Under the pieces are notes generated by a model. That model was given only the letters and a program-made list of their open reading frames with translations, did no database searches and was not told the origin of the DNA. A stretch of DNA of 64,000 bases from Halocafeteria seosinensis (taxonomy: Eukaryota), in contig LVLI01000156.1 of the NCBI GenBank assembly GCA_001687465.1, positions 1 through 64,000 on the forward strand, given 5' to 3'. Shown here in pieces: positions 7,978 through 51,487 of this stretch. Within the stretch, counting starts at the first letter, position 1. Every line of letters begins with the position of its first letter. Made by a program: the position numbers and the translations under genes.

Positions 7978-9650
7978 ATGTCCAGTACCGGTGGTAGCAG
8001 GTTTCCCTGGTGCTATCGGCTACCCTGCGTAAATGGCAGTAGCCAAAATTTTCCAAGAAGGGGCGAACAAAAGATAAACCCAAGAAATGCGCAGGAAGAA
8101 GGCTCTAGTTCTTACCTTGGAAATGCTTCGAATGTGAGTAAACCACGATTTCTTCGTCCATCCGAGCTCCATACTGGTATCCGACCCACCCAACTGTCTT
8201 CTCGCATTGTGCACAGCGAACGAAAACCTTGCCAGCACAATTACTGACATCCGGCCACGATGACGTACTAGTGGCCACACCCAATGTGCCTCCTCAGATG
8301 GAATGCGTCCCGTCGATTCCAACGTTCCTGGCAGCGGAGTTGAGCAAAGGGACTGATGATGGAGTCAGTTTGATAGACCCAACCGATCCCTGGAAAGAAA
8401 AACTCGAAACGGTTCCTGCGTTGACAGGAAATGGCTTTTCTCAATCCAGTACTGCTTGTTCAGGAAGTTTGGCAAGGGCAGCTCAAACCTCCAGTACGTA
8501 CACACTTTCTCCGCTTGTACGAAGCTCTCCATAAACAGGCCGAAGAACCCTTCGCAGAGGATGAAGCAGATGCGCAATATTTGGATGAACAAACGCAGGT
8601 TTGTACACTCTCGAGGGTTGGTAATGCTCGCGTAGCCACACATTATCTTGTTGGGTACCTTTGCTCTCCACAGACTCTTGCTAGTCGAAGATCTCAACCC
8701 TGCCATCCTGCTAAGCGAGGAAGTGTGTTCAGAGGCTTCTTTTCGCGCAAAATTTATTTGAATGAAAGCGTAAATGCTCATCACGTATGCGTACGTCCGT
8801 GCTCATGCACGCTAAGCGCTCAAGCTGTTGTCAATGCAGGGTCTCACTGAAGTCGTACCAAGAAAGGAACCCAAGGAACGCCATTGGCGATGGAGATCTC
8901 CCAAGTCTTCCGCAAGAGTTGCCCCTATGCCGACTCCAAAGGTTAGATCGGAACCCGTAAGTCCACTGGGTAATAGCATGTATTTGTGACCCAACAATCG
9001 CTTGAAGTGTCAATATCAACCGCAGGAAAAAAAAATCCAAGAAGTGTTGCCCATACCATCCAAAAACGATAAAAAGCCATGTTTGGTATTAGATCTTGAC
9101 GAAACCCTCGTCCATAGCTCTTTCAAGGTCAGTGAATCAGTATCGGCAAGTGAGGAAATGCACTGCCACTTGTAATATTGACCTGCAGAGAGTAAGATCT
9201 GCCGACTTCATCATTAACATTGAACTCCACGGAGATCCTCTTGATATTCATGTGATTAAAAGGCCCTTCGTAGATGAGTTTCTGAGCACACTAGCACAGA
9301 GGTATGAGATAGGCGTTTTTACAGCTAGTGTAAAGGAATATGCGGAGAAAGTTGTAAGGCATTTAGATAGTAATGGAGTCATTCAGTGGATCCTGTGTCG
9401 CGATTCATGCACTCTGTATAAAGGGCAACGAGTAAAGGACTTGCGTCGTCTTCCGCGGATGTTATCACAAACAGTAATCGTAGATGATAAGAATATTTCG
9501 TTTTCTTTCCAGCCAGACAATGGAATTGAGTGTGTACCTTTCTACGGAAATACTGAAGATGCGGAGCTAAAACTCCTGCAACAATTTCTGTTAGACACGA
9601 GCCGGTTCGAAGATCTCACCCTATACTTACGGAAGTGGGATAATAGCTAA
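7978..9650 (+). CDS. SCP/CTDSP-like HAD phosphatase (NIF/FCP1 homology domain), copy A, multi-exon
   Basis: KPCLVLDLDETLVHSSFK (DxDxT motif, ~9073-9127) is spliced across intron 9128-9188 to VIKRPFVDEFL...FTASVKEYA...VKDLRRL...IVDD...PDNGI. The N-terminal exons and start are tentative. Confidence 0.8.
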
Positions 9651-10497
9651 AGAAGCAATAACGACTAATGGATACGTTTCTGACATTTGAGGGCCCCCAC
9701 TGGTTTATGTGACCTAAACCTTCCGAAAGAACGAGGTGCTCCTCACATTCAGCTTTACGAAATTCATTAAGAAATAGTGCGTATTCACGAAAATCTGCCC
9801 CTGATTCTGCCGATGCATGAGTAGTTCAGCTGCGACAGAGTTGACGAAGCTGCCAGGTACTGTGGGGGTCAGGCAGTCGTTTCTCTGTGTTTTAGAGTCG
9901 AGTCCCTGAAGGTTTCCGCTCCTCCAAGGTCCATGCTGTCAAGATTTGGTCTAAGACTACCGGTACTTGCTTACCACTCAAGTCTGTCTCGCTATCACAT
10001 CAAACTCAGTGATACATGTACTGAGAGCAACAGTGCTCTACTCCGGCGGAGGCATTGGTAACGGCTTCGGTCGCAGCCAGGCAGCCTGCGACCGCAAGAT
10101 GGGCGCGCGTCGCCGAGCGAGCGAACAGCACTTTTCAAGGTTTATAGCACTAATTATAAAATGTTTAACAAATTGAAAACTGGGAAAATATGCACATACA
10201 GCATTATTTGCCTCTGCTGGTATTGTATGACAAGACTAGGCAAACTCAGCTTGTGGTTTCTTTCGGCTGCTTATCTTACGTGTATGACGTATTTTCACCC
10301 TTTTCCCTACAAGTGAAGCCATCCTCAGATTCAGGAGAGCTGGTACCGCCTGTTTTCACCACACGCTGCAGAGTGGATTTGTCATGCAGTATTTTAATCG
10401 TGTTGAGCACGTCACACGGTTAAGGGAAGATCCGGAGCTTTGCGTAACAGCTTGCCGCTGAAACTCTAGTTATTGCACAATCTGGATGCAGATAAAA

Positions 10498-12170
10498 ATG
10501 GCAGAAGAGGAAATACAAGGAAACCAAAGCAGTAATGTCATAGAAGAACAGTCCAGTGCTTGCCCTGGCACAGTGGCGGAAAACGCCTCGGGTGTAAGTG
10601 AAACATCTACCGCATATACTCCGCGCCTGTAACTGACTGCAAACATACCTCTATCTCAGGAATCCCTTGCCTTCACCGCTGGAACATCCGAGATGTATAG
10701 CAACATTAGGTCGGAGAAACCGCATGTAGCAGACTCAGAGCAAAAATGGGAGTGCATGTCGTCAACTCCCGTGGCTCTAGCGCTGGAGCCGTCCATTCCG
10801 TCTCCGGTATCACACAAGAGTGAAACTTGGGCCGATGTTTCCCCTCACTGGAAACGTGTACAAGCGCATAATCATGCATCAACGCCTAGTGGACATACGC
10901 ATGCATCAGCGTCTAGCAGATGTCCTAGAGCTATGCTGGAAGCACCCGGACCTTCAAGAGTGGCCATGCAAGGTCACTGGTGTAAGTATTTATGCACAGC
11001 TGCTCTTCTGCAGAAAAAATATATTTTTTGGTCGTTTGACAGTCGATGATTTGGCCGAGTCGCGTTTAGAGAGGAGGAAAATTCACTCTTCAAGGTCATC
11101 GAGAGAACGTCGGCCACGAGTAAGTGAGACCTTTAGAGGTATCCCGTCTTCCATATTTGTTGAGAATTATAATACTATCGCAGGTACACCCGAAACTAAC
11201 GTCAGGGAATTCTGATTCTACCTTCAAGAAGTCTGGGTTCTTTAAACGTCTGTTCTTTTGTAGTATCACCGATATTGGAACTGTAAGTTTTGTATCTATG
11301 CGGCTCAAACGATAAGTCGTACCATGCGTCAACTACGTACAGAGTTCCACGCCACCGATAAGCGCCAGGGAACAGAAGCAAAAGAGGCAGATCCGGAATC
11401 CGTTTGCGTCAAATGAACGTGCTTCAATTCTCCCTTCCCGAACGAGATCGGAGCCTGTACGTCTATACGCTAAAGCCTCGAGGTTCCCTAATTTGCACCG
11501 GTAGCATCCACACGTATGATCTGCAGGAAACGAGTAATCGGCGTATGCTTCCTGTGCCACCTAAGAAAGATGCGAAACCATGCCTCGTACTAGATCTTGA
11601 CGAAACTCTAGTGCATAGTTCATTCAAGGTGAGTACCAGGTAGTTCATCACTGGTTCATGGCTCCAATCTATCCTGTTCGGGGTATTTGCTCTTCTTGTG
11701 CTCAGAGCGTGGAATGTGCTGACTTTATCATTGATATAAGTGTTCAAGGTCAACCGTTTCATATTCATGTCATAAAGAGACCCTTCGTTGATGAGTTCTT
11801 GAAGGTTTTGTCTCAGAAGTACGAGATCGGCGTTTTCACGGCCAGCGTAAAAGAGTATGCAGACGAAGTTGTAAGCCGTCTCAACACTGACGGTGCAATT
11901 CAGTGGACGCTATATCGTGAGTCATGTACTTTATACAAAGGGCAAAGAGTAAAAGATCTACGCCGTCTTCGACGACTGCTATCCCGAACAGTCATCGTAG
12001 ATGACAAAGATACGTCTTTCTTGTTTCAACCAGCGAACGGCATTGAGTGTCTCCCTTTCTTTGGAGATCCGGAGGACACAGAATTACGGGCCCTTCAACG
12101 GTTTTTATTGGATGCAAGTGATCTCGGGGGAGACGTAACGCAACATCTTAGCAAATGGGATGAGTACTGA
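10498..12170 (+). CDS. SCP/CTDSP-like HAD phosphatase, copy B, multi-exon
   Basis: KPCLVLDLDETLVHSSFK, then an intron at the same position as in copy A, then a complete NIF domain to the stop at 12170. The start (aaaATGG at 10498) is tentative. Confidence 0.82.
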
Positions 12171-13250
12171 CTTAGCTTATTTTCGGTCTTATCCGCCAGC
12201 ATGGAACACCGATACTGTGGCGATAGCTAGGGAGGTACAGCGAAAGTGCGGACTACATAGGATTAACGTATTATTTCAAACTGTGGACGGAATACATGAA
12301 AATGGTTCCCAGACAGCTTCCACAATCCCGGGACGCGGCTTGGTCGATTGAGTCCTCTGCCCCAGCTTGATTGCGTGGCTTGCTAAGCCTCATGCAGCAT
12401 GTGTAAGGGAACATTTGTACCGTATACCCCTCTTGTTCTGATAGTGCTGTAAGTGGGTAACTTTATGTCTGACAAACAGGTTATGACGCACCTTGCCCGC
12501 ACTTGTTCAGCGCGAGCAAGCAATCCAGAGGCGCTTGCTACATTGACTCATAGCCGCTATGGTTATACCTTGCATGGATAAACGCTGTAGATGTGTCGTG
12601 TGTTAGCCGTGAAAATGTAGCTTCTGCGTGGATTGCATAGGGAATACGGTAATGCAGGAACCTAGTTCAGGCAGCCGGGAACGTGTGACGCGAGTAAGAT
12701 GGCACAATGCTGCTATGAAATGGGCCCTTGAGGATGGATTCCTGTTGTATGTCGCGCTCTGACTCAGTACTTGGTGCCCCACTGATTGTTCTTGCAACCG
12801 TACACCCGGTCGCAGGTTGCGACGCGACCCAGCGGGAAGTACCGTTGAGCAGTCTGGTAGCCAGCTCGGGGTAACCTGTATTGTCCGCTTTGTAGGCAGA
12901 CATACTGTAAATGAGTAAGACTATAATGCACCCTAACCAGCATATGTGTCACGAAACCGTTTAAATAGTGATACTCCTTCCTTACAAGAAAACCTATAAC
13001 CTAGCAGGTCTATGAAACCAGCTCGGCTGTGGTATCAGCGTGTATGACGTGGTGTCCACAATCCTTGCTGCCACCAATAGAGGGACTAAATGGCAATGAT
13101 TATTGGAACCGCCTCCTGTAATCTGAAAGTGGTATTGTAGAAAATACAGGAGACAGGGGTTTCCGGGCTGAAATCCGATACTGTCAGGCAGTCAGGGCTG
13201 CCCTGCCCCGGAGCTCCGCCTGTCTGTCTCCGCTGCTGAATGAAGTGAAA

Positions 13251-14989
13251 ATGGCGGCAGACGAACGGAAGAGCAAGGAATGCGGAATGGGGAAACTGGA
13301 AGAACAAGCTACTACGTATCCGGGTGTGATCAATACTTCCAGCGTAAGTTCTTCGAACGGAGTCCATGTGTTCTCACGGTGTGAGTCTGACACACACCCA
13401 CACTTTGACTGCTGAGCTACAGGAATCGCCCATATTCAACACGACGACGGCTAAGAGCTGGAACAAAGTCCATGTCCAAAACGGTAAAAAGGGAGTAGAT
13501 CACGACAAAGGAGACTTGCTATCTGTGCCTACCCCTCTTGACCCAGAAGCGGGCCATACGCCTTCTTCGCTGACACTCTACGGGGCTGAGACTTCATCCA
13601 CCTTCCCTTGCGAAGATTCTGTTACAATTAGACAACGGAATGACGTTGCTTTTAAAGGCAGGCGCCGTTTTCTGTCCTCATTTGATAATCCCGAACCTAC
13701 TAGGCAGCAGACACAGGAACCGTGGCGTACGTACCGGACGTGTTGGTAGCATCTGTTTCTAGTGGTGATATCTTTCGCCCTTGCAGTTGATGATATGGCT
13801 GAAACCCGATCAGAAAGGCGGAAATTCGCTCCACCTCGAGAGGATACTGACAAGGCACAGGTATGTGAGATGACACGCAAGGAGTATCTCATGCATTCTA
13901 TCACAATGGATAGCACATATGTTGTGTATGTTTGACAGTTAACTCGCGGCCGACGTTCTAGCGAGAATGATCGTGGCTCGTCACTGAGGAAGCCTGTTTG
14001 GTTTAGTCGGTGCTTGATATGCAGAATTACTGAAAATGATGTACGTTCCGTTACTACCGCGCGGATATTCTTCTTATGAACCGGTCATATTCACGTTACA
14101 GATGCCGGACAACGACACGGATTCGGTGCTACAGAGAAACGAGACGCGTAGTGGCCGGCGACGAAGGAAAACACACAAGTATTCTTCAAGGCAGATTGTC
14201 CCCATATTGCCCCCACGAAATAGATCGGAACCAGTAAGCCGCAGTATTCTCATAACCATATACAACGAAAATGCCGAAAGCGCTGTCCTCGCGAGTGCAG
14301 GTATCAACTAAGAAGAAAATGTTGCCGATTCCCAGAAAAACAGATAACAAACCATGCCTTGTGTTGGATCTTGACGAAACTTTGGTTCATAGCTCGTTCC
14401 AGGTTCGTGCTGTATTACGTCCGATGGTTCTGATGGTTCTCTCGACAATTTGTTTACCGGTGTATCCCTGAGCTCGCAGAGAGTCAAGACAGCCGACTTC
14501 GTGGTCACTGCGAAAGTCGATGAGAATCCTCTTAGTATTTACGTAATTAAGCGCCCCTTTGTCCATGAGTTCCTGAAAACGTTGGCACAAAAATACGAAA
14601 TCGGTATTTTTACAGCAAGCCAGAAGGAATATGCAGAAAAAGTGGTAGAGCGCCTAAATGCGGATGGAACTATTCAATGGACCTTGTATCGCGAGTCTTG
14701 CACACTGTATAGGGGACAGCGGGTCAAGGATTTGAATCGCCTGCCTCGGCAACTTTCCAGAACGATCATCGTAGACGATAGGGACACCTCGTTCTTATTT
14801 CAGCCGGAAAATGGTATTGAATGCCTGCCATTCTATGGGAATGCCGAGGATGTTGAGTTGAAGAGCCTTCAAGGATTTCTTTTGGAGGCAAGCGACTCGG
14901 AGGGCCTGCTAGACCGTTTGAGGATGTTCGATCAATACCGGGACAATGTCGATAACGCAGTCCCTAATGAAAGCAAAAGTGAGAGTTAA
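13251..14989 (+). CDS. SCP/CTDSP-like HAD phosphatase, copy C, multi-exon
   Basis: KPCLVLDLDETLVHSSFQ, a shared intron and a complete NIF domain. The start (aaaATGG at 13251) is tentative. Confidence 0.82.
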
Positions 14990-15539
14990 CTAAGAACCAC
15001 CCCTTTTGTTTCTTGCATCTTGTAGCGACGGCTCATACGACGTTCGAGAATGCTCCAGAAAAAGTTGTCTGGAGCTATATGATAGACGCAGGAGCTTCCC
15101 GACACGCCGATTTACGATTCGATAGGAAATGTACAGGTTTCGAACAGTGACAGTCGTGGATCCAACATTGTCGCCGCAAATGTTTTCATTTCCCTGTTTC
15201 GAAAGCAGGTACGTGGCTTGCCGCACCGTAGTACCGGAGATCTCAGCGGATGTCAGTCAAGATACTAAGCGAACTCTAAGTGGATTGGTACCACTCTGTG
15301 TTGTAACATGCATACAGTTTGATGATTCACTTGTGGTTTTAATTTTGTACAAAATGTAATTTCTCATCGCTTTCCTCTTTCCTTAGCAGTCTTACACTGC
15401 TGTGAAACCATAAGTTGCACCCTGCGACCAAGATCCTATACCGCAACAACAGTGATACTGGTATGCCTTTTCGCTGCATGTAGCGGGTTTTGGATTTGTC
15501 TCCTTGAAGACAATAAATGCAAAGTGCGCGAAAAGATTC

Positions 15540-17086
15540 ATGAATTCACCTTTAAACAGTATTGTGGTGCCGGATAAAGTGCTCACCTCGTGGGCTGCCA
15601 GTAAGCCTGCGTCCTCACCTCGGGAGTCTCAGCTGATAGTGAGTTCAACATGTGTCGCCGTGCATGCAATGGTTATCATTTTCCCGTCCACTGGTCTCTT
15701 ATTTGTTTTGCAGCCTTCAGCATGTGGAGACTTTGAGTGCGAGTGTACTCCTTCCTGTAGTTCTGTGATGACAGTAACCAGCATTAAGTCTTCCTTCCGG
15801 TCCCTTGATGCGGGAAACAGTAAGACCCAACCTTTTGGGCTAGGATGTGAAGGGAACATCACATACATCGCTTATACTTCTTGTGGTATATCTGCAGATT
15901 CTAAGCTCTTGGGAAGAACACCAAGGGGAAACACTGCTCCTGGAAGAGGAAAGCCGTCTGCTGCCAAGGGTTGCACATCCAATGACGTTGCCAATCCCTG
16001 TGACCCGTCAACAAGCCTTCAGGAGGAGGCTCATGTTCAAGATTTTGAAATTTCGAAAAAAAATGACCCGGGCAAAAGACGTACCTTGTTTTGTCGATCT
16101 CTTCTTCAAGGCCTTATGTGCAATTCTTCGATAAACGTGGAGACTATGAAGAAGGTGCGGATGGTTAGAGTTCACAGACGAGTTAGAGTTGACTGACAGG
16201 CAATTGGCCGAGTGTAATGACGGCTGCAGAATACGGTTGTTCCTCAAGTCCCTTTGAACGATTTAGGGGCTCAGATCTTGGAGTCATCGACCTTTCCCCA
16301 TGAGAATGCGTCCGCAAATGCGTTTCAGGCCGAAGCAACGTTTATTGTGCAATCGACAACAAGAGTGAGACGGACGCGATCTATACCGGTAGGCAGTTTC
16401 GCTTGTCTGCTTCTGAAATATCCCGCACGCAAACGTGTCATATTCCACAGGAATATCGCCGTGGGAAAACGGCGTGCGTCCCTCCGAAGAAAGATAATAA
16501 ACCAGTGTTGCTTCTCGATCTTGATGAAACGTTAGTTCATAGCACCTTCAAGGTATGTCCTATTCCGTGTTTCTGTGGAACTTCTTCATTCGTAGCACCG
16601 ACGTCCATGTGCGGGCAGTATACGACACGAGCACACTACAGGTTGGAAGTCACAATGGGAAAGAAATTGGTGCCCATCTACGTCATCAAGCGTCCTTTCG
16701 TTGAACGATTTTTGAGCAAACTATCAGGAAAATACGAAATTGGGATCTTCACAGCTAGCATGGCAACATACGCTGAGTCTCTCCTGGCACGTCTAGATCC
16801 TGAAGGACATATCAGATGGGCGCTGTATCGTGACTCCTGTACCTTCTACAGAGGAAGCTGGGTGAAAAATCTTTCTAACTTACCCCGTGAATTGACACGA
16901 ACTATTATCATCGATGACAGGAAGAGTTCGTTTCAGTTCCACCCGGAAAATGGGGTTGAGTGCCGACCGTTTTATGGGGACGCAACTGATGACGAGCTAC
17001 TGAAGCTGGAACGTCTTCTGTTTGACCTAAACGTGAATACAGCCGATTTACGGCCACTGATCAATCCGTGGATCAATTGTGCTTGA
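15540..17086 (+). CDS. SCP/CTDSP-like HAD phosphatase, copy D, multi-exon
   Basis: KPVLLLDLDETLVHSTFK, a shared intron, then VIKRPFVERFL...FTASMATYA...IIDD...HPENGV. The 5' end is uncertain. Confidence 0.78.
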
Positions 17087-29000: not shown

Positions 29001-30518
29001 ATGGTGCCTTGGGATCTTCACGGATATGCCGAGGCCCGACTCCACAAGCTGAGAGTGCCAGAGTTGAAGGACCTATGTAGGGAGCGAAGTATCAAACCTC
29101 TGCCACAGAAAAAGGATGACCTTGTTAACGCTCTACTTGACTGGAAAAAGAGCGCGAATGAGGCGCAATCTTCTGCATCAGCAGAGTCCGCTCCGGCCGC
29201 AGGTACGTTAGATCTTCAACCAAGCGATCTGCATGCTGCATGCTATGGCTGCCGTAGGGATGTCGGCCTATTCCATTGTATCATATTTTCTGCTTTCTAA
29301 CGGCTATGAATCGACGTTCTCCGAAACCTGTTTCAGCAGGCTCACCGACTCGATCTGAGACCTCATCATCCTCGAAGCTCCCTTACGATCTAAGAAACTA
29401 TGGTGAAGCGCGGCTCAGTAAACTAGCAGAAGCGGAACTGAAAGCGTTATGTAAAGAGCGTGGCCTTAAGGTATCCCATCCGAAAAAAGAGGAAGCAGTT
29501 CAGGAACTGCTTAATTGGAAGCGTTCTTCGGGTACGTACAAAGTGTGGGTGTGCCTTGTGTTTCTTAGATGATTTCACAGCGGTTCTGTTCTACCCGCCA
29601 GCATCCCCATCGCGAGATGAAGGTAAAGTAAAATTATCTGAGGGATCCAAAAGTCGGGCCATCGCTGAAAACAAATCCGACGAAACGGGAGTTGGCGCTG
29701 TGGATGTCGAACGCCGGAAAACGGAAGCGCCAACAGCCGGAGATGTAGACTCCGATGCGGACGACGAGGAAGGGGAGAGCTTAGGTCAGTTCCGAACAAT
29801 AGATGATGTCCCTTTTATGCTCAATGGACTAGGCCGTAGCCGCCTGGAAGGGTTTTCTACTGATTTTCTTCGGCAGCTACATACCAAGAGGAAGGAACAG
29901 ACGATGAAACTGAACATTAGTCCTGTTGCTGAGGGTAACAGTCGATACGACTATATTGAAGAGCTGATGAAATGGAAAGATGAAATAAAACGACAATACA
30001 ATCTTCGGGCTAATGTTGACCAGAAAACTGAAGACGTTTGGAGCTGGAGAGATAACACAGACGTCTACACACTGCTAGGAAGGAAAGCAGTGGAAGACCA
30101 AATCCCGGAGGTTGACCATGTGATGGAGATTCAAATCATCAACCGTGCTTTTGGAAACGCAGACATAAAGAACAACGGTGCTACTACTCGTGGTGTTAAA
30201 AATTTCCTGCATTCGACCGTCAACCACGTTCATAACTTGAATGTTACCCCGCATAAAGTGAACCAAGCCAAGAAGGGTCCGTTCATGACGTCTCTTAATA
30301 GAATTCTTGCTGATGCCCATCCTGAACCCCTCCGTGAACTGGCCCCAAAGCCGCTAGTCGATGAGGGCACATGGGCAAGAATTGAGAGAGCTGTTTCACA
30401 GTTCTATGACCAACTTACAACCGATATTTCCCAACACCACCAAAATCGACTGACAACAGGTTTCCAGGAAGAGCTCCACGGTTTGTTATCGAAAATGGGA
30501 TTGGAAGAGCTTGACTAA
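29001..30518 (+). CDS. Uncharacterised protein with three SAP/HeH-like repeats and a C-terminal HNH-like nuclease domain, 3 exons
   Basis: Repeats PWDLHGYAEARLHKLRVPELKDLCRERSI..KKDDLVNALLDWK, PYDLRNYGEARLSKLAEAELKALCKERGL..KKEEAVQELLNWK and a degenerate third. The C-terminus has EVDHVMEIQ...NHVHNLNVTPHKVNQAK. Introns start at 29203 and 29532. Confidence 0.65.
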
Positions 30519-46400: not shown

Positions 46401-47370
46401 ACTCTCGGTTAATCTGAATATCAGTTCAAACAAGTCTCTACATTCTATCAGCGTGAGCTTGCGGCTGAAGTCGAAACTTACCTTGACGCCATCGTTTAAC
46501 CCTTTCAGGGTTTGCTCTCGACTAAGATCTGGGAGACTTTGGAAGCGAAGCACCGCTAAGCCTATCGCCCCTATTACTAGCAAGAGCGTCGCAATGGCAA
46601 CGACGAGTGTCAAGGTCACCCATGAGAACCAAAGGACCCATCGCTTCCATGGAGTTTGACGGCTGAGATGGCACGCATTACATCGATTACAGCAATTCGA
46701 CTCGGGTAACTGATCCAATGTCGAGTATTTGTGTGAGGATGCGTTCCTTAAAACGGAGAGGTCTTGCTCCGTTTCCAGATCTCTTTGTGGTTTCTTCTGG
46801 ACCATGCTCTTCCAGTTGCTCGGAAGTGTTGTGCACAGACAGTATTGCCCAAGTTTTCCGCGGCTTGTGCGCCATAAGTGAATCGCGAATAAAGCTAGTA
46901 GCGTCGGTCCCAAAATGGGCAACGCAATCATCAAGTCTCTTATCAAGGGACACAAATCTGCACCAGCAAGCAAATTGGAATCGTGGTACAAAAACCAGTT
47001 CGATTGGCAAAACCCCTGAGACAAGTAACTTACGTCGGTAAGGGTTGAGTACGACAAGAAGGTACACATACGCGAGGGTCGACAGAATCGCTGTCCCAAT
47101 GGTAGCGTACAATCCTACGGTGCGTGTGCACCAGCGGCATGACCCAATGAACCTGCAGGAGCATCGAGGAGCTCTACGGCGCCGGTTCTCAACTTCGGAG
47201 ACTTCCAGGCCTTCCAGATGATCCGTCATGACATGGATATCGTCCTCGCTTTCAAATGGACCGTGAACATCCTCGTGTCGGTGCTCTGAAGCGCAAGCGC
47301 GTCCGGAGGAAGACGGATTCGTGTTCATCACGGGGGTGTAGCGAGGCAATTCCTGCTGTTTTGACGCCAT
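43435..47370 (-). CDS. Peptidase S45 acylase with N-terminal TM region, copy 2, multi-exon
   Basis: RLFQMELQRRIGKG, GA|SNNWVIHG, NDPHL, LGHNKNIAWGVTN, PSQNVVFAD and VSANNQ. Intron positions match copy 1. The stop TAA is at 43435-43437. Confidence 0.9.
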
Positions 47371-48103
47371 GGCAACGTCGTGCCTCCCCACAGTATAAAG
47401 CTACTACTGGTTGTTGCCTTTTTTTGTCTGTCTTTTGAGGGAAAGGAAGGCAGGTCAACTGGCACCATGCATAACAAACCCGCAATGAACGACTTGTGAA
47501 GCCAGAATCTAAGATACCGGGTCCGTGTGTCATCAGACGGGGAATGAATCGGCACGGTTGTACTGGTACTTTGGGCTTTAAGCTACATGCATAGCTTACT
47601 GTCGATCGATTGCAAGAGAACTTTGAAACATGTTTCATGACACCGGCTCCTTCAGCATCGTCGCATTTGACAAGAGTGAGAGTTCAACCATCAACAATCA
47701 ACTGCGTAGGACGTGGCTGAGAAGGCAAATGCGGATATCCGGCTTATTAGACGACGTCGTCGTCGATTAGATACAAGGGACACGTGTACCGTTAGTTGAT
47801 GCAGTTCATGGACAGATACCGGTTGATAGGATATGCCCGGCGTTCTACTCCTGTTTGAGTTCCAACAAGCGGGAATCTCAGAAAAGCGGAACGTAAAGAA
47901 TGGAGATTCTTCAGTAGAGAGAGAAATACTAAAGACCCAAAACTATAACTGTAACCAATAAATGAGAAATCGAGAGAGCAGCTGAGTTCATTTGGTATCT
48001 ATCTGTGTTCTCGCTTAGCAACTGGGCACTAAATGCCATACCACACGGTACAGTAATGTATAGCCTGCTACCTATTCCAATTACTACTACCTACGAAAGC
48101 AAG

Positions 48104-51100
48104 CTAATGGTTTTCAGGGTGAGACTGTCGTCTATCAACGAAATACTGAAGTTTGGCAGACCGCTTCGACCTGTAGAGTGAGTCCACTATCTCAAACTTT
48201 ACGGAGTCCACATTCGTTCCGGTATTAAAGACATTATTTTGAAGGTCCAGACAAACTGAATGCAACGCTTTTGAAATGTCAAGTAGTTTGTCCGAGGATG
48301 GTTCGACAATTGCCAAAGTTACTGTACTCTTGATCCCTTCCTCACTTCGGTCGATCCACAGCTGAAACATGGACGGAATGTCTTCTTCAAACCGGCACTG
48401 TTTTAGACCGTTCCTAACTACCGTGGCCACTTCCTCCCAGGAGATGAACTTGGAGCCAAAAGGCATGCTTCTGCTACCAGGCGTTCTTCCGAGCACCTCA
48501 ATCTTGGAACAACTGTGGCCCACCTGCTTAACGAGGTCGCCCGTGTCGAAGCGAACGAGTGGATGCTCTTTCCTAACAAGGTTTGTTAGTACCAGTCGCC
48601 CAGGGTTACCCGGCTCAACGGGAGTGTCCGCATCTTGTGCTAGTATCTCGGGGTAAACGGTATCCGATGCGATTGTATAATGTTCTGTGTCTCCAGCTTC
48701 TTGCCCAATGGCAAAGACGCCAGCTTCAGCGCTGCCATAAACTCCAAATAGTTGACACTCAGAATGGCACATATCTCGAATGAAACTACGCTGATTTATA
48801 TCCAGCGGCTCGCCTCCATGGACAACTCGACGCACGGTAGGCAGTTTTCGACCTAGATTTTTACATGTCAGTGCCAATTGAAGAATCCTCGTTCCCCACC
48901 CTGCAAGAAAGTTAACTCCAAAATGATATATTGCTTCCAGTACCTCATCATCGGACGCATTAGCTCCAACAGGTAGGTGAGTAGCGTTCACTTGCAGCAA
49001 CACGTCCTGAAAGACTTCCATGGAACGGATCAAGTTGCCGGAGGCGAATAGATTAACAGCGACCACCTCCGTATCCAATAAACCGGATATTTGCATTTGC
49101 TTTCTCAGTCTCGTCCTCATCGTTACATTTTCACTATTTGTCCGGGGTACAGCAACTTTAGAGCTCGACGATGCTGAATGAGCTGGTGTTGTGCCTCCTG
49201 CTGGACTCCAGTAGAGTCCACCCTTGCCATAGAAACATGTTCCAAAGTGGTCCTGCAACCGACCAACAAGTTGCTGTTTCGATAAAATAGGCCATGCACG
49301 TAAGTTAAAGCCCGACAGTGATCTCCCTAAGTAAGTAAGGGACAAATCATTCCTGTCGTGGTACATCCGATGACGCTTGGCAGACAACAGTACACTATCA
49401 ACTTCAGGTGCGTTGTCAAANTCAAATCTTATGCGCTGCAGATATCGGCGGGATTCCTTAATTATTCCACGCGAATGAGCAAACCGGTGATTATCTGTTA
49501 TCAAGATTGTACGCTCTGGAACTACCATGGCCGACGCATCGCACCGTTGCTGTAGTATCTCCTCAAGCCTATCAAACGCTTTCCAAAACTTCGCTTCTTG
49601 TTCTTGCGTGAGGTCAGATGTGTCAATGCTGTCCCTTCTCAAACGAGCTCGCGTATCAGAAAGGAGTACCGGACCACGTATGCGATCAATTTTGCCCTTT
49701 TGGAACTCTGGGGGGACTTTCCAATTAACTTGCGTCTCTTGCAGTATCACTTCGTCCTGCGCCGAAAGATCGGCGACGGCGTCCCCGACTGATGTAAGGC
49801 CGAAAAGACCATGATACGTCTTGTCGGCCCTAACGATGGCAAGAGCGACAAAGCGGGGAGGAGGTTCTTCGAAAGTGGCGTCTGTGTGGACATCGAACTG
49901 TTTCTTAGTATGCGACCGTGCAACATGTCCTCCACTAGCAGGCTGAGGTTTGACGTCCCATACATATCCTTCCTTGTCACTATGTCGTCGAAGATTTCCA
50001 CCCAATATGTTTTCGATAAATCTTTGGAGTTGATCCTTGTTCCCTAACTCGGATTTCGTAGCAACTAGTGCCATCCCATCCTTTGCCAAAGCCTCCCTTA
50101 TGCCATATCCGTCAACTGTTTCAAGTCCACCATAGAAAAAACGATCGCTACGTGGAATATCAGAGATTAGAATTGCCGGAAATATAGGGATACCACCCGA
50201 AGACAAACTAATGACGTGACTAGCAGAACTTCTGCACAGTCCAGGGCCATAGTGAATGCCGTCCAGTGACAGAAACGTCCCGACCACCCGATAACGAGTA
50301 ATCTGGAATGCTGAACTCGTTACTTGGAATTTATGTTGACGCACGTATGGTTGAGCGACGTGCTGCCCATGTTGCCTGAGTTCCTGTAACTTTTCATGAA
50401 ACTCGCTTGTCGTAAATTGGCTCTGCACAACGACCCCTTCGCCTTTTCCCGCGAGACGTGGTTTGATTACCATGCCATCCTGCATTAGTTCCATTGCCCC
50501 GTCATCCAAACGCTCTAGTGATATTGTCGGAATAACGTGCCTCTTTAACGTCTTTCTGTATTCTTCCGATAAATTCCCTACTTCTGATCTAAGAAGTTGT
50601 AGCATCAACTTGTCGTGCGCTAGGAAGATGGTCCGTAGGTCGTTCAAGCACCGCCCTCGCTGAGATAGACGAGCAAATCCTTTAAGGACGTCCACGCTAA
50701 GAGAAAGGATTTCGTCTTGGTGAAGCTCAAGAATGCACTGATGTACCTCTTTGCTGGCTCCATCCTGCGAGACTATGGCCAGTGCTCCGTGTGGGGTGCA
50801 GAAAATCTCCGAAGGATTGCAAACGCAAACGCCGAGATAAGTTAGCTGCCCGAAGAGTCCTGTGTCATGCACGGTCTCCCTACCTCGTACAATCCAGACG
50901 GTCGTATCCCTCTCAAATCTACTCCTTAAATCCTTTATCAGACTCATGCTAGCACTGTCGGCGGATATACTGTAGTCAGATAAGCAACTGGATCCGGAGG
51001 CTGCCGCTTCATGTAGCGCACTGTTAACCACAGCTCCAATCAGGAACCCATTAAGCGGAAATCTACAATTTATTTCACACACTTTAATATCCCCATCCTC

Positions 51101-51487
51101 GGTAAACAAGAAATCAGGCCTCAAAGTCCCGAGGGATGTGATCGTACCACCTCCGTCTCCCCACACCTCTGTGAAAACCTCTTTAATTTTTTCAGGAAGC
51201 GGTAGTTTCTTCTGGAGTGTTGGTTCTCGAGGCCACCTGGAAATAAGGGAGCAAAGACCCGCATATACTGCGTCATTAATCTGAGCTAGCAATTGACATT
51301 GCTGAGGTGTCCAGACAAATGGACTAGGGGATGTAGATTCCAACATCTCCGTCAAAGCTGGCGAAACCTCCAAGGCCCCGAATGCTTCCCATGTAACGTC
51401 CGCCATGTTGCCTTGGTATCTGCTTTGACTCACATCATCCCTGAAAATATTGCTTTCGTATTTACCTCCACACTCTTTGAGCTTCAT
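48104..51487 (-). CDS. Tri-domain enzyme: circularly permuted ATP-grasp ligase + TauD/CAS-like Fe(II)/2OG dioxygenase + phenylacetate-CoA-ligase-like (PaaK/ANL) domain
   Basis: ATP-grasp: LRPDFL...VCEINCRF, HDKLML, VIKPRLAGKGEGV, VAQPYV. Dioxygenase: HTD, DNHRFAHSR, LQRIRF. ANL: PILSK, HGGEPL, YGSAEAG, LVLTNL...PLVRFDTGD, VLGRT, SAKL. It is a single open frame with one N at 49421. The start is ATG 51487 or 51406. Confidence 0.82.
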   Translation of the reverse strand: MKLKECGGKYESNIFRDDVSQSRYQGNMADVTWEAFGALEVSPALTEMLESTSPSPFVWTPQQCQLLAQINDAVYAGLCSLISRWPREPTLQKKLPLPEKIKEVFTEVWGDGGGTITSLGTLRPDFLFTEDGDIKVCEINCRFPLNGFLIGAVVNSALHEAAASGSSCLSDYSISADSASMSLIKDLRSRFERDTTVWIVRGRETVHDTGLFGQLTYLGVCVCNPSEIFCTPHGALAIVSQDGASKEVHQCILELHQDEILSLSVDVLKGFARLSQRGRCLNDLRTIFLAHDKLMLQLLRSEVGNLSEEYRKTLKRHVIPTISLERLDDGAMELMQDGMVIKPRLAGKGEGVVVQSQFTTSEFHEKLQELRQHGQHVAQPYVRQHKFQVTSSAFQITRYRVVGTFLSLDGIHYGPGLCRSSASHVISLSSGGIPIFPAILISDIPRSDRFFYGGLETVDGYGIREALAKDGMALVATKSELGNKDQLQRFIENILGGNLRRHSDKEGYVWDVKPQPASGGHVARSHTKKQFDVHTDATFEEPPPRFVALAIVRADKTYHGLFGLTSVGDAVADLSAQDEVILQETQVNWKVPPEFQKGKIDRIRGPVLLSDTRARLRRDSIDTSDLTQEQEAKFWKAFDRLEEILQQRCDASAMVVPERTILITDNHRFAHSRGIIKESRRYLQRIRFXFDNAPEVDSVLLSAKRHRMYHDRNDLSLTYLGRSLSGFNLRAWPILSKQQLVGRLQDHFGTCFYGKGGLYWSPAGGTTPAHSASSSSKVAVPRTNSENVTMRTRLRKQMQISGLLDTEVVAVNLFASGNLIRSMEVFQDVLLQVNATHLPVGANASDDEVLEAIYHFGVNFLAGWGTRILQLALTCKNLGRKLPTVRRVVHGGEPLDINQRSFIRDMCHSECQLFGVYGSAEAGVFAIGQEAGDTEHYTIASDTVYPEILAQDADTPVEPGNPGRLVLTNLVRKEHPLVRFDTGDLVKQVGHSCSKIEVLGRTPGSRSMPFGSKFISWEEVATVVRNGLKQCRFEEDIPSMFQLWIDRSEEGIKSTVTLAIVEPSSDKLLDISKALHSVCLDLQNNVFNTGTNVDSVKFEIVDSLYRSKRSAKLQYFVDRRQSHPENH

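Follow-up and report, generated by a model that had tools for sequence, protein, structure and literature searches.

We examined a 64,000-base stretch of Halocafeteria seosinensis DNA (assembly GCA_001687465.1, contig LVLI01000156.1, positions 1 to 64,000; "the window" below means this whole stretch) and found a gene in which an ATP-grasp ligase, a TauD-type Fe(II)/2-oxoglutarate (Fe/2OG) oxygenase, and an ANL-type ligase follow one another in a single open reading frame (ORF). By analogy with the fungal E-64 pathway, we think it probable that this one polypeptide would carry the whole E-64-type route without a carrier protein, giving an epoxide-armed cysteine-protease inhibitor. E-64-type epoxysuccinyl compounds are standard inhibitors of cysteine proteases. 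A preliminary description of this DNA had reported a single frame of about 1,100 residues with three enzyme signatures in series. Translation confirmed this: the 1127-residue frame has no internal stop, and we located all of the motifs that had been quoted (Table 1), with R1001 and K1112 of the ANL domain present as expected.

The E-64 pathway was solved in 2025 as three stand-alone fungal genes with homologous clusters in cyanobacteria. According to the main text of that report (PMC12568646), Cp1A epoxidizes free fumarate to (2S,3S)-trans-epoxysuccinate, Cp1B, working via ADP, joins this acid to a hydrophobic L-amino acid, and the resulting conjugate is adenylated and coupled to an amine by Cp1D, an ANL enzyme. 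The minimal cassette described there consists of the Fe/2OG oxygenase, Cp1B, and the ANL amide synthetase, the pyridoxal phosphate (PLP) decarboxylase Cp1C being dispensable. Alanine mutants identified R139, D141, E163, and N165 of Cp1B as important (PMC12568646). In the same report, bacterial MfaA, at approximately 20% identity, still yields trans-epoxysuccinate, which implies that function survives divergence of this size.

The N-terminal domain had been called an ATP-grasp, and both sequence and fold support that call. Pfam ATP-grasp_3 matched it at an E value of only 0.21, and the assignment therefore rests on Cp1B. The best sequence match in the PDB was 9cjn, "Ligase Cp1B" (phmmer E 1e-25, residues 51-433), and Foldseek ranked the same structure first (TM score of 0.72 on the target), with glutathione and homoglutathione synthetases lower. 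R123, D125, E138, and N140 correspond to the Cp1B residues R139, D141, E163, and N165, the four residues from which we derived the offset of 15 between PDB 9cjn and the published numbering. Reading the phmmer alignment, the Cp1B pocket residues F175, V228, V477, and I488 become I150, H207, L417, and L428, three of which are hydrophobic.

The middle domain proved to be the TauD/clavaminate-synthase-like domain with a full HxD...H triad that had been proposed. Pfam TauD matched above its cutoff (E 3e-10), the iron triad H534, D536, and H671 is intact, and the family-conserved residues R524, S525, R615, R673, R681, and R685 are present. A signature comprising ARS, F-x-x-HTD-x-S, P-x-EF, HxR, and RxxxRxR is common to the fungal, bacterial, and fused members. 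The closest solved structures were asparagine oxygenase AsnO and clavaminate synthase (profile E ~1e-10 to 1e-12), with the cutoff of the clavaminate synthase NCBIfam NF043003 unmet (28.8 bits versus 450). Since the Foldseek matches listed for the full-chain model include no TauD protein, the fold of this domain rests on sequence profiles. Some fusion-clade members have lost the triad, with His534 kept in 25 of 32 rows. Five members of the clade (P0023, P0025, P0026, P0028, and P0029) have long TauD branches and weak TauD scores, with P0028 visibly lacking the iron triad; these are possibly warhead-less variants.

The C-terminal domain was likewise borne out as a PaaK-type ANL domain by its motifs, by an AMP-binding match in Pfam (E 3e-7, 29.8 bits versus a cutoff of 29.9), and by its closest folds, which were PaaK, ClxA, NatL2, AjiA1, and Bacteroides acyl-coenzyme A (CoA) ligases. 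Besides the two residues named above, the key positions are the P-loop YWSPAGGT, R821, E893, S919/E921, and R979/D984. The P-loop SPAGGTTP had been termed atypical; the motif is present but is not odd for the family, matching the signature Y[WL]SP[ST]GG[ST]. For the middle and C-terminal domains, cutoffs of named families were missed by a wide margin, including that of the PaaK NCBIfam TIGR02155 (33.4 bits versus 646.3). As a lead on the Cp1D family, the Atlas has an ANL look-alike cluster of 668 members, mostly ascomycete and 462 residues in length; most look-alikes in the Atlas bear an automatic acyl-CoA-ligase name. No Pfam family for the carrier (T) or condensation domains of nonribosomal peptide synthetases (NRPS) matched at E ≤ 1, and the three domains occupy the whole chain. 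The 26 key positions were identical (26 of 26) in all 10 of the 10 other full-length fusions that we checked.

We modeled the full chain with AlphaFold2. The model from a 97-row alignment had a mean predicted local distance difference test score (pLDDT) of 91.5 and a predicted TM score (pTM) of 0.88 and was used in place of one from a 3-sequence alignment (pLDDT, 41.5). The high pTM suggests that the three domains are packed in a fixed arrangement. Because no transmembrane or signal-like stretch stands out in the 1127 residues, the enzyme is probably cytosolic.

To link domains 2 and 3 to the E-64 genes, we relied on proxy proteins from fungi. P0081 (Aspergillus ibericus), P0104 (Stachybotrys chartarum), and P0141 (Mycena galopus) scored 522, 472, and 483 bits, respectively, against 9cjn Cp1B by phmmer; M. 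galopus is listed with two E-64-like clusters in the main text of PMC12568646. The P0081 gene model is a Cp1B homologue with an attached TauD domain, and the P0104 gene model is a Cp1B homologue with an attached ANL domain. P0152 closes the triangle of the three families, since it pairs a TauD domain that is sister to that of P0081 (100/89) with an ANL domain that is sister to that of P0104 (100 SH-aLRT; 63% identity). The window TauD domain is 29% identical to that of P0081 (E 9e-29), and the window ANL domain is 27% identical to that of P0104 (E 7e-20). With profiles built without the window protein, the TauD profile scored the window domain at 186 and P0081 at 177, while the ANL profile scored the window domain at 252, P0104 at 198, and four PaaK-like outsiders at 68 to 86. 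Judged by these sequence comparisons, domains 2 and 3 belong to families that are attached to close Cp1B homologues. In word-indexed searches with the TauD and ANL alignments, the 49 and 19 proteins retrieved included no named partner from Aspergillus flavus, Mycena, or Microcoleus.

A phylogeny was built for each domain. FastTree was run on 146, 118, and 76 rows for the three domains and IQ-TREE, under LG+G4, on selected subsets comprising 47, 45, and 33 rows; all trees are unrooted. The main fusion group formed one side of a branch in all three domain trees, which would fit one old fusion event. In the IQ-TREE subsets, the fusion clade had support of 99/98 for the ATP-grasp domain and 98 SH-aLRT for the ANL domain. 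For the TauD domain, the fusion side was separated from the fungal group at 97/96, but it contains an open node and one stand-alone row. The ATP-grasp tree unites the fusion clade, with support of 95/79, with a fungal clade made up of close Cp1B homologues. P0062 and P0080 are placed elsewhere in the TauD and ANL trees, which looks like a separate fusion event. P0207, a stand-alone TauD protein annotated in the fungus Geosiphon pyriformis, clusters with sequences from Coxiellaceae, Rickettsiales, and Vibrio (100/92) and may be either a transfer or a bacterial contig. Because the trees are unrooted and their deep nodes open, we claim no donor lineage.

The same domain order recurs elsewhere. 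We searched 1.84 billion representatives with a profile and obtained 4250 matches at E ≤ 0.001; among the best 150 of these 4250 the order ATP-grasp-TauD-ANL occurred in 18 (some partial), with permuted orders in 3 more. Named full-length fusions came from the diatoms Stephanocyclus meneghinianus and Cyclotella cf. meneghiniana and from the chytrids Obelidium mucronatum and Nowakowskiella sp. In locus L080, the fusion is one ORF amid eukaryotic genes (exosome, PLAA-type). In two intron-bearing, fungal-looking metagenome loci (L138 and L140), ATP-grasp and TauD are fused and a divergent ANL gene of the same family stands separately next to them, a two-gene form of the cassette. Among viral contigs, 0 of 60 candidate stretches were confirmed.

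In bacteria, the stand-alone ATP-grasp alignment retrieved 49 GTDB loci, several of them cut by contig ends. All three genes were present in 19, ATP-grasp and ANL in 10, ATP-grasp and TauD in 8, and the ligase alone in 12. In the 19 three-gene loci, the genes lie side by side in various orders (L015 has a different TauD subfamily). This form occurs in marine Vibrio, host-associated Rickettsiales and Coxiellaceae, and Obscuribacterales, which widens the known range of the cassette. We scanned 75 of the 155 listed neighbor ORFs, plus the L015 TauD, and found transporters of the MATE (L005 and L008), MFS (L023), and EamA (L035) families beside some cassettes. In "Candidatus Aquarickettsia rohweri" (L005, 3775-9827) and a Midichloriaceae metagenome-assembled genome (L008, 5105-9764), a TauD gene and a fused ATP-grasp-ANL gene (843 residues) accompany the MATE exporter, making these host-associated bacteria candidate carriers of an E-64-type cassette. 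A decarboxylase beside the L005 cassette was considered as a Cp1C equivalent and rejected because it passes the glutamate decarboxylase cutoff; in L008 and L033, the upstream position is taken by other genes. Vibrio caribbeanicus, V. sagamiensis, and V. ostreicida (L001 to L003) carry the three-gene cassette, two of them with an unclassified membrane protein inside it, and the Piscirickettsia salmonis LF-89 record (L004) has a TauD gene in two ORFs and a short ligase. In a 401-genome sample of the phylum of genome G001, only the center genome was a true member and 19 genomes gave weak partial matches; the Microcoleus mfa cluster was not found among the genomes searched in this sample.

Several loci without TauD (L016, L019, L024, L039, and L047; also L012, L026, L041, L048, and L049) were adjoined by a glutathione-synthetase-like ligase and/or a GT2 glycosyltransferase together with a protein of approximately 280 residues of no known family. 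Their gene content points to a second, undescribed pathway context for the ATP-grasp family and to other uses of the ligase.

We propose the following reaction sequence for the fusion. By analogy with Cp1A, the middle domain would epoxidize free fumarate, which it might itself form by desaturating succinate, to give (2S,3S)-trans-epoxysuccinate. The N-terminal domain, like Cp1B, would then phosphorylate one carboxyl group (ATP to ADP and Pi) and couple an L-amino acid through the acyl phosphate. Lastly, the C-terminal domain, like Cp1D, would adenylate the amino acid carboxyl group (ATP to AMP and PPi) and couple an amine without CoA; putrescine, cadaverine, and agmatine are candidates. What our data show directly is the frame, its domains, the conservation of residues, the family links, and the distribution; we infer every reaction, as well as the substrates, the product, and an ecological role in defense or competition through cysteine proteases. 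The preliminary description had suggested a carrier-free synthetase that could build and oxidatively tailor an acylated amino acid or short peptide. Homology supports the carrier-free amide-forming part, while the tailoring order is probably wrong, since Cp1A acts first on free fumarate and not on the finished amide.

A number of observations weigh against an E-64-type product. All identities to the fungal side are approximately 21 to 30%, and the orthology of domains 2 and 3 to Cp1A and Cp1D is by proxy, through P0081, P0104, and P0152. P0081 and P0104 resemble merged gene models with cut ATP-grasp C termini, although merged neighbors would still show adjacency. At 95/79, the ATP-grasp node that joins the fusion and fungal clades falls slightly under our starred threshold, and neither the TauD tree nor the ANL tree places these two clades as sisters, the deep nodes being open. 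The equivalent of pocket residue V228 is His207, a histidine in 13 of 22 fusion-clade rows, so another amino acid may be the substrate. Twelve of the 49 bacterial loci had neither partner within the retrieved DNA, several of them lying beside glutathione-synthetase-like and glycosyltransferase genes. No Cp1C-type PLP decarboxylase occurs among the 16 window ORFs scanned, and the one beside L005 is a glutamate decarboxylase. Finally, we found no report in the literature of an epoxysuccinyl-type compound from a protist.

In the strongest alternative, the same carrier-free logic makes a different diamide or pseudopeptide, with another acid, amino acid, or oxidation and no cysteine-protease warhead. 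For example, the acid unit could be fumaryl, malyl, or succinyl, the amino acid could be polar, or the oxygenase could hydroxylate instead of epoxidizing. The 27 to 30% identity to the fungal proxies and the histidine at the V228 position would suit such a product, as would the loss of the iron triad in part of the clade. The nearest solved oxygenases, asparagine oxygenase and clavaminate synthase, hydroxylate, and a change of substrate within the ligase family is evident from AnkG (see below) and from the bacterial loci linked to glycosyltransferases. However, the oxygenase retains the arginine-rich signature of Cp1B partners, the exact trio stays together, and even lower identity did not cost MfaA its function. 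We regard a different product as possible but clearly the less probable outcome.

In a second alternative, the C-terminal domain would be a genuine acyl-CoA ligase, and the role of the fusion would lie in primary or catabolic metabolism rather than in specialized synthesis, where it would activate and oxidize an aromatic or short acid. PaaK and the Bacteroides acyl-CoA ligases are among its closest folds, and the names of its Atlas look-alikes point the same way. Nonetheless, the domain falls far below the PaaK cutoff and groups with ANL domains attached to Cp1B homologues, and the same fold includes NatL2, AjiA1, and ClxA, which we take to be CoA-independent ligases. The patchy distribution and the MATE, MFS, or EamA transporters adjoining several bacterial cassettes also argue against this role, which we judge to be improbable.

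The window has one ambiguous base, and it falls at the TauD/ANL junction; thus, we tested whether the fusion is an artifact of assembly. This N is in the third position of a GAN codon, which encodes Asp or Glu and cannot be a stop. A EukProt record of transcript type, labeled as a complete ORF (P0002), is identical across the 1127 residues with Asp at that codon, and P0003 aligns to the N terminus starting at residue 1. Contig X1 from a public run spans 47300-51163 without gaps. X2 (47977-50674) and X3 (48003-50188) are ungapped from about residues 272 and 434, respectively, across both junctions and beyond the stop, and all three contigs bridge position 49421 ungapped. X2, X3, and X4 omit two CT..AC introns of a neighboring gene that X1 retains, and from this we infer that they are RNA-derived. 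The X1 to X4 runs come from one study with at most two samples, possibly of the same source as the window, and may for that reason not be independent of it. The preliminary description had called for confirmation of a single transcript: RNA-like contigs and P0002 cross both domain junctions, and although one contig is no proof of one transcript, there is no break that needs explaining. That the frame is an assembly artifact, merges two or three genes, or is dead is very improbable and already largely refuted, despite the N, the decayed partial copy nearby (Table 1), and two permuted-order clusters of distant "fusions" (P0038 and P0085) that are split in other assemblies, given these records, the full-length homologues in independent genomes, and the retention of all catalytic residues.

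TABLE 1 Positions of the fusion gene, its domains and motifs, and other features of the window
Feature	Position	Strand	Basis or remark
Intron-free ORF, ATP-grasp + TauD + ANL, one polypeptide	48104..51487	-	1127 aa + stop by translation
Cp1B-type ATP-grasp ligase domain, aa ~50-440	50168..51340	-	phmmer, Foldseek, residue match
ATP-grasp motif RPDF	51121-51110
ATP-grasp motif CEIN	51079-51068
ATP-grasp motif HDK	50617-50609
ATP-grasp motif IKP	50467-50459
ATP-grasp motif GKGEG	50449-50435
ATP-grasp motif QPYV	50353-50342
TauD/CAS-fold Fe(II)/2OG oxygenase domain, aa ~455-692	49412..50125	-	Pfam TauD, iron triad, family residues
TauD motif HTD	49888-49880
TauD motif AHSR	49480-49469
Single N, third base of GAN codon, TauD/ANL junction	49421	.	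Sole ambiguous base of window; no gap
PaaK-fold ANL domain, aa ~705-1122, candidate amide-bond synthetase	48122..49375	-	Pfam, Foldseek, key residues
ANL motif SPAGGTTP	49207-49184
ANL motif GGEP	48817-48806
ANL motif YGSAE	48739-48725
ANL motif RFDTGD	48553-48536
Decayed inverted partial copy of 5' part of ANL domain (matches 49374-48964), deletions and stops	47529..47859	+	blastn E 7e-7
Penicillin-amidase-family (PF01804) paralogue, intron-split, hydrophobic N-terminal segment	31391-34408	+
Penicillin-amidase-family (PF01804) paralogue, intron-split, hydrophobic N-terminal segment	43911-47391	-
Penicillin-amidase-family (PF01804) paralogue, intron-split, hydrophobic N-terminal segment	51842-55810	-
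Four tandem NIF/FCP1-like phosphatase ORFs	9096-17086	+	One confirmed by Pfam
352-aa ORF without Pfam match	29460-30518	+	EVDH...N...H pattern

The surroundings of the gene are those of a eukaryote with short introns, its neighbors being intron-split. With a GC content of 0.481 and a GC3 of 0.461, the fusion gene is inside the range of these neighbors and carries no compositional sign of recent transfer. The decayed ANL copy (local score of 131.5 versus a maximum of 50.5 in 30 shuffles) lies about 250 bases past the stop, outside the ends (47977-48003) of the spliced-type contigs, and appears to be a duplication relic. Two of the PF01804 paralogues flank the fusion gene in tandem. We considered these penicillin-amidase genes as pathway members and rejected them, since tblastn of five neighbor ORFs found no match in 156 loci (mostly bacterial or short). 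The pattern in the 352-residue ORF presumably recalls an HNH-type nuclease.

The preliminary description had not recognized the architecture as a characterized enzyme. This holds for the fusion itself, but because the three parts match the characterized three-gene cp1ABD pathway (PMC12568646), the chemistry is not new. We found no description of the one-gene architecture or of its range outside fungi and bacteria. The words "fusion" and "fused" do not occur in the main texts of PMC12568646 and the preprint 10.1101/2024.10.09.617497, whose figures and main supplement could show fused genes. Nor did we find a description of the three-domain form, or of the pathway in protists, diatoms, or chytrids, in a literature whose subscription papers lay mostly outside our scope. 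If our proposal is correct, a single gene would yield the complete molecule, with inputs of fumarate, an amino acid, an amine, ATP, and O2, and its product would be a directly testable one-protein biocatalyst. It would also be a pathway collapsed into one ORF, able to move between eukaryotes as a unit, and diatoms, chytrids, and other microbial eukaryotes would gain a specialized-metabolite pathway without an NRPS or polyketide synthase signature. A bolder and rather doubtful extension is a family of carrier-free single-chain assembly lines in which three unrelated active sites in one rigid protein pass a reactive epoxide acid from site to site, one transferable gene letting flagellates, diatoms, and chytrids make E-64-type warheads aimed at cysteine proteases in grazers, prey, or parasites. 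Substrate channeling between the sites is speculation from the model. Should the product differ from E-64, the family would still point to unknown carrier-free pseudopeptides.

Among known systems, the closest are the cp1A-cp1B-cp1D genes of A. flavus, cp2, and cyanobacterial mfa, which, as far as the main text describes them, combine the same three enzyme classes without a carrier protein (PMC12568646; PDB 9CJN). Domain 1 of the fusion is directly homologous to Cp1B and keeps the catalytic residues of that enzyme. Whereas cp1 comprises three genes, the fusion has all three predicted activities in one ORF; it occurs in a non-fungal-looking microbial eukaryote, diatoms, and chytrids, at approximately 21 to 30% identity, has the polar pocket residue His207, and has no decarboxylase among the window ORFs. 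AnkG of NK13650 biosynthesis, a Cp1B-related ATP-grasp enzyme at approximately 30% identity to Cp1B, is proposed for amide formation, as we propose for domain 1, adding Asp to another acid; the likeness is by description, and the legend of Extended Data Fig. 2 does not tie AnkG to a TauD and ANL pair (PMC12568646). The dapdiamide enzymes DdaG, DdaF, and DdaC resemble the fusion in combining an ANL amide ligase, an ATP-grasp enzyme, and an Fe/2OG oxygenase around a fumarate-derived epoxide warhead, but according to the same text epoxidation there occurs on a carrier-bound intermediate (DdaD) and the ligase order is reversed (PMC12568646). Domain 3 scored 13.7 bits against the DdaG family (cutoff, 700). 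PaaK, NatL2, AjiA1, and ClxA have the fold and core motifs in common with domain 3 but are stand-alone enzymes for aromatic acids at 15 to 18% structural identity, and domain 3 is under their family cutoffs. Clavaminate synthase and AsnO have the same TauD/CAS fold and iron triad as domain 2, which remains below the clavaminate synthase cutoff.

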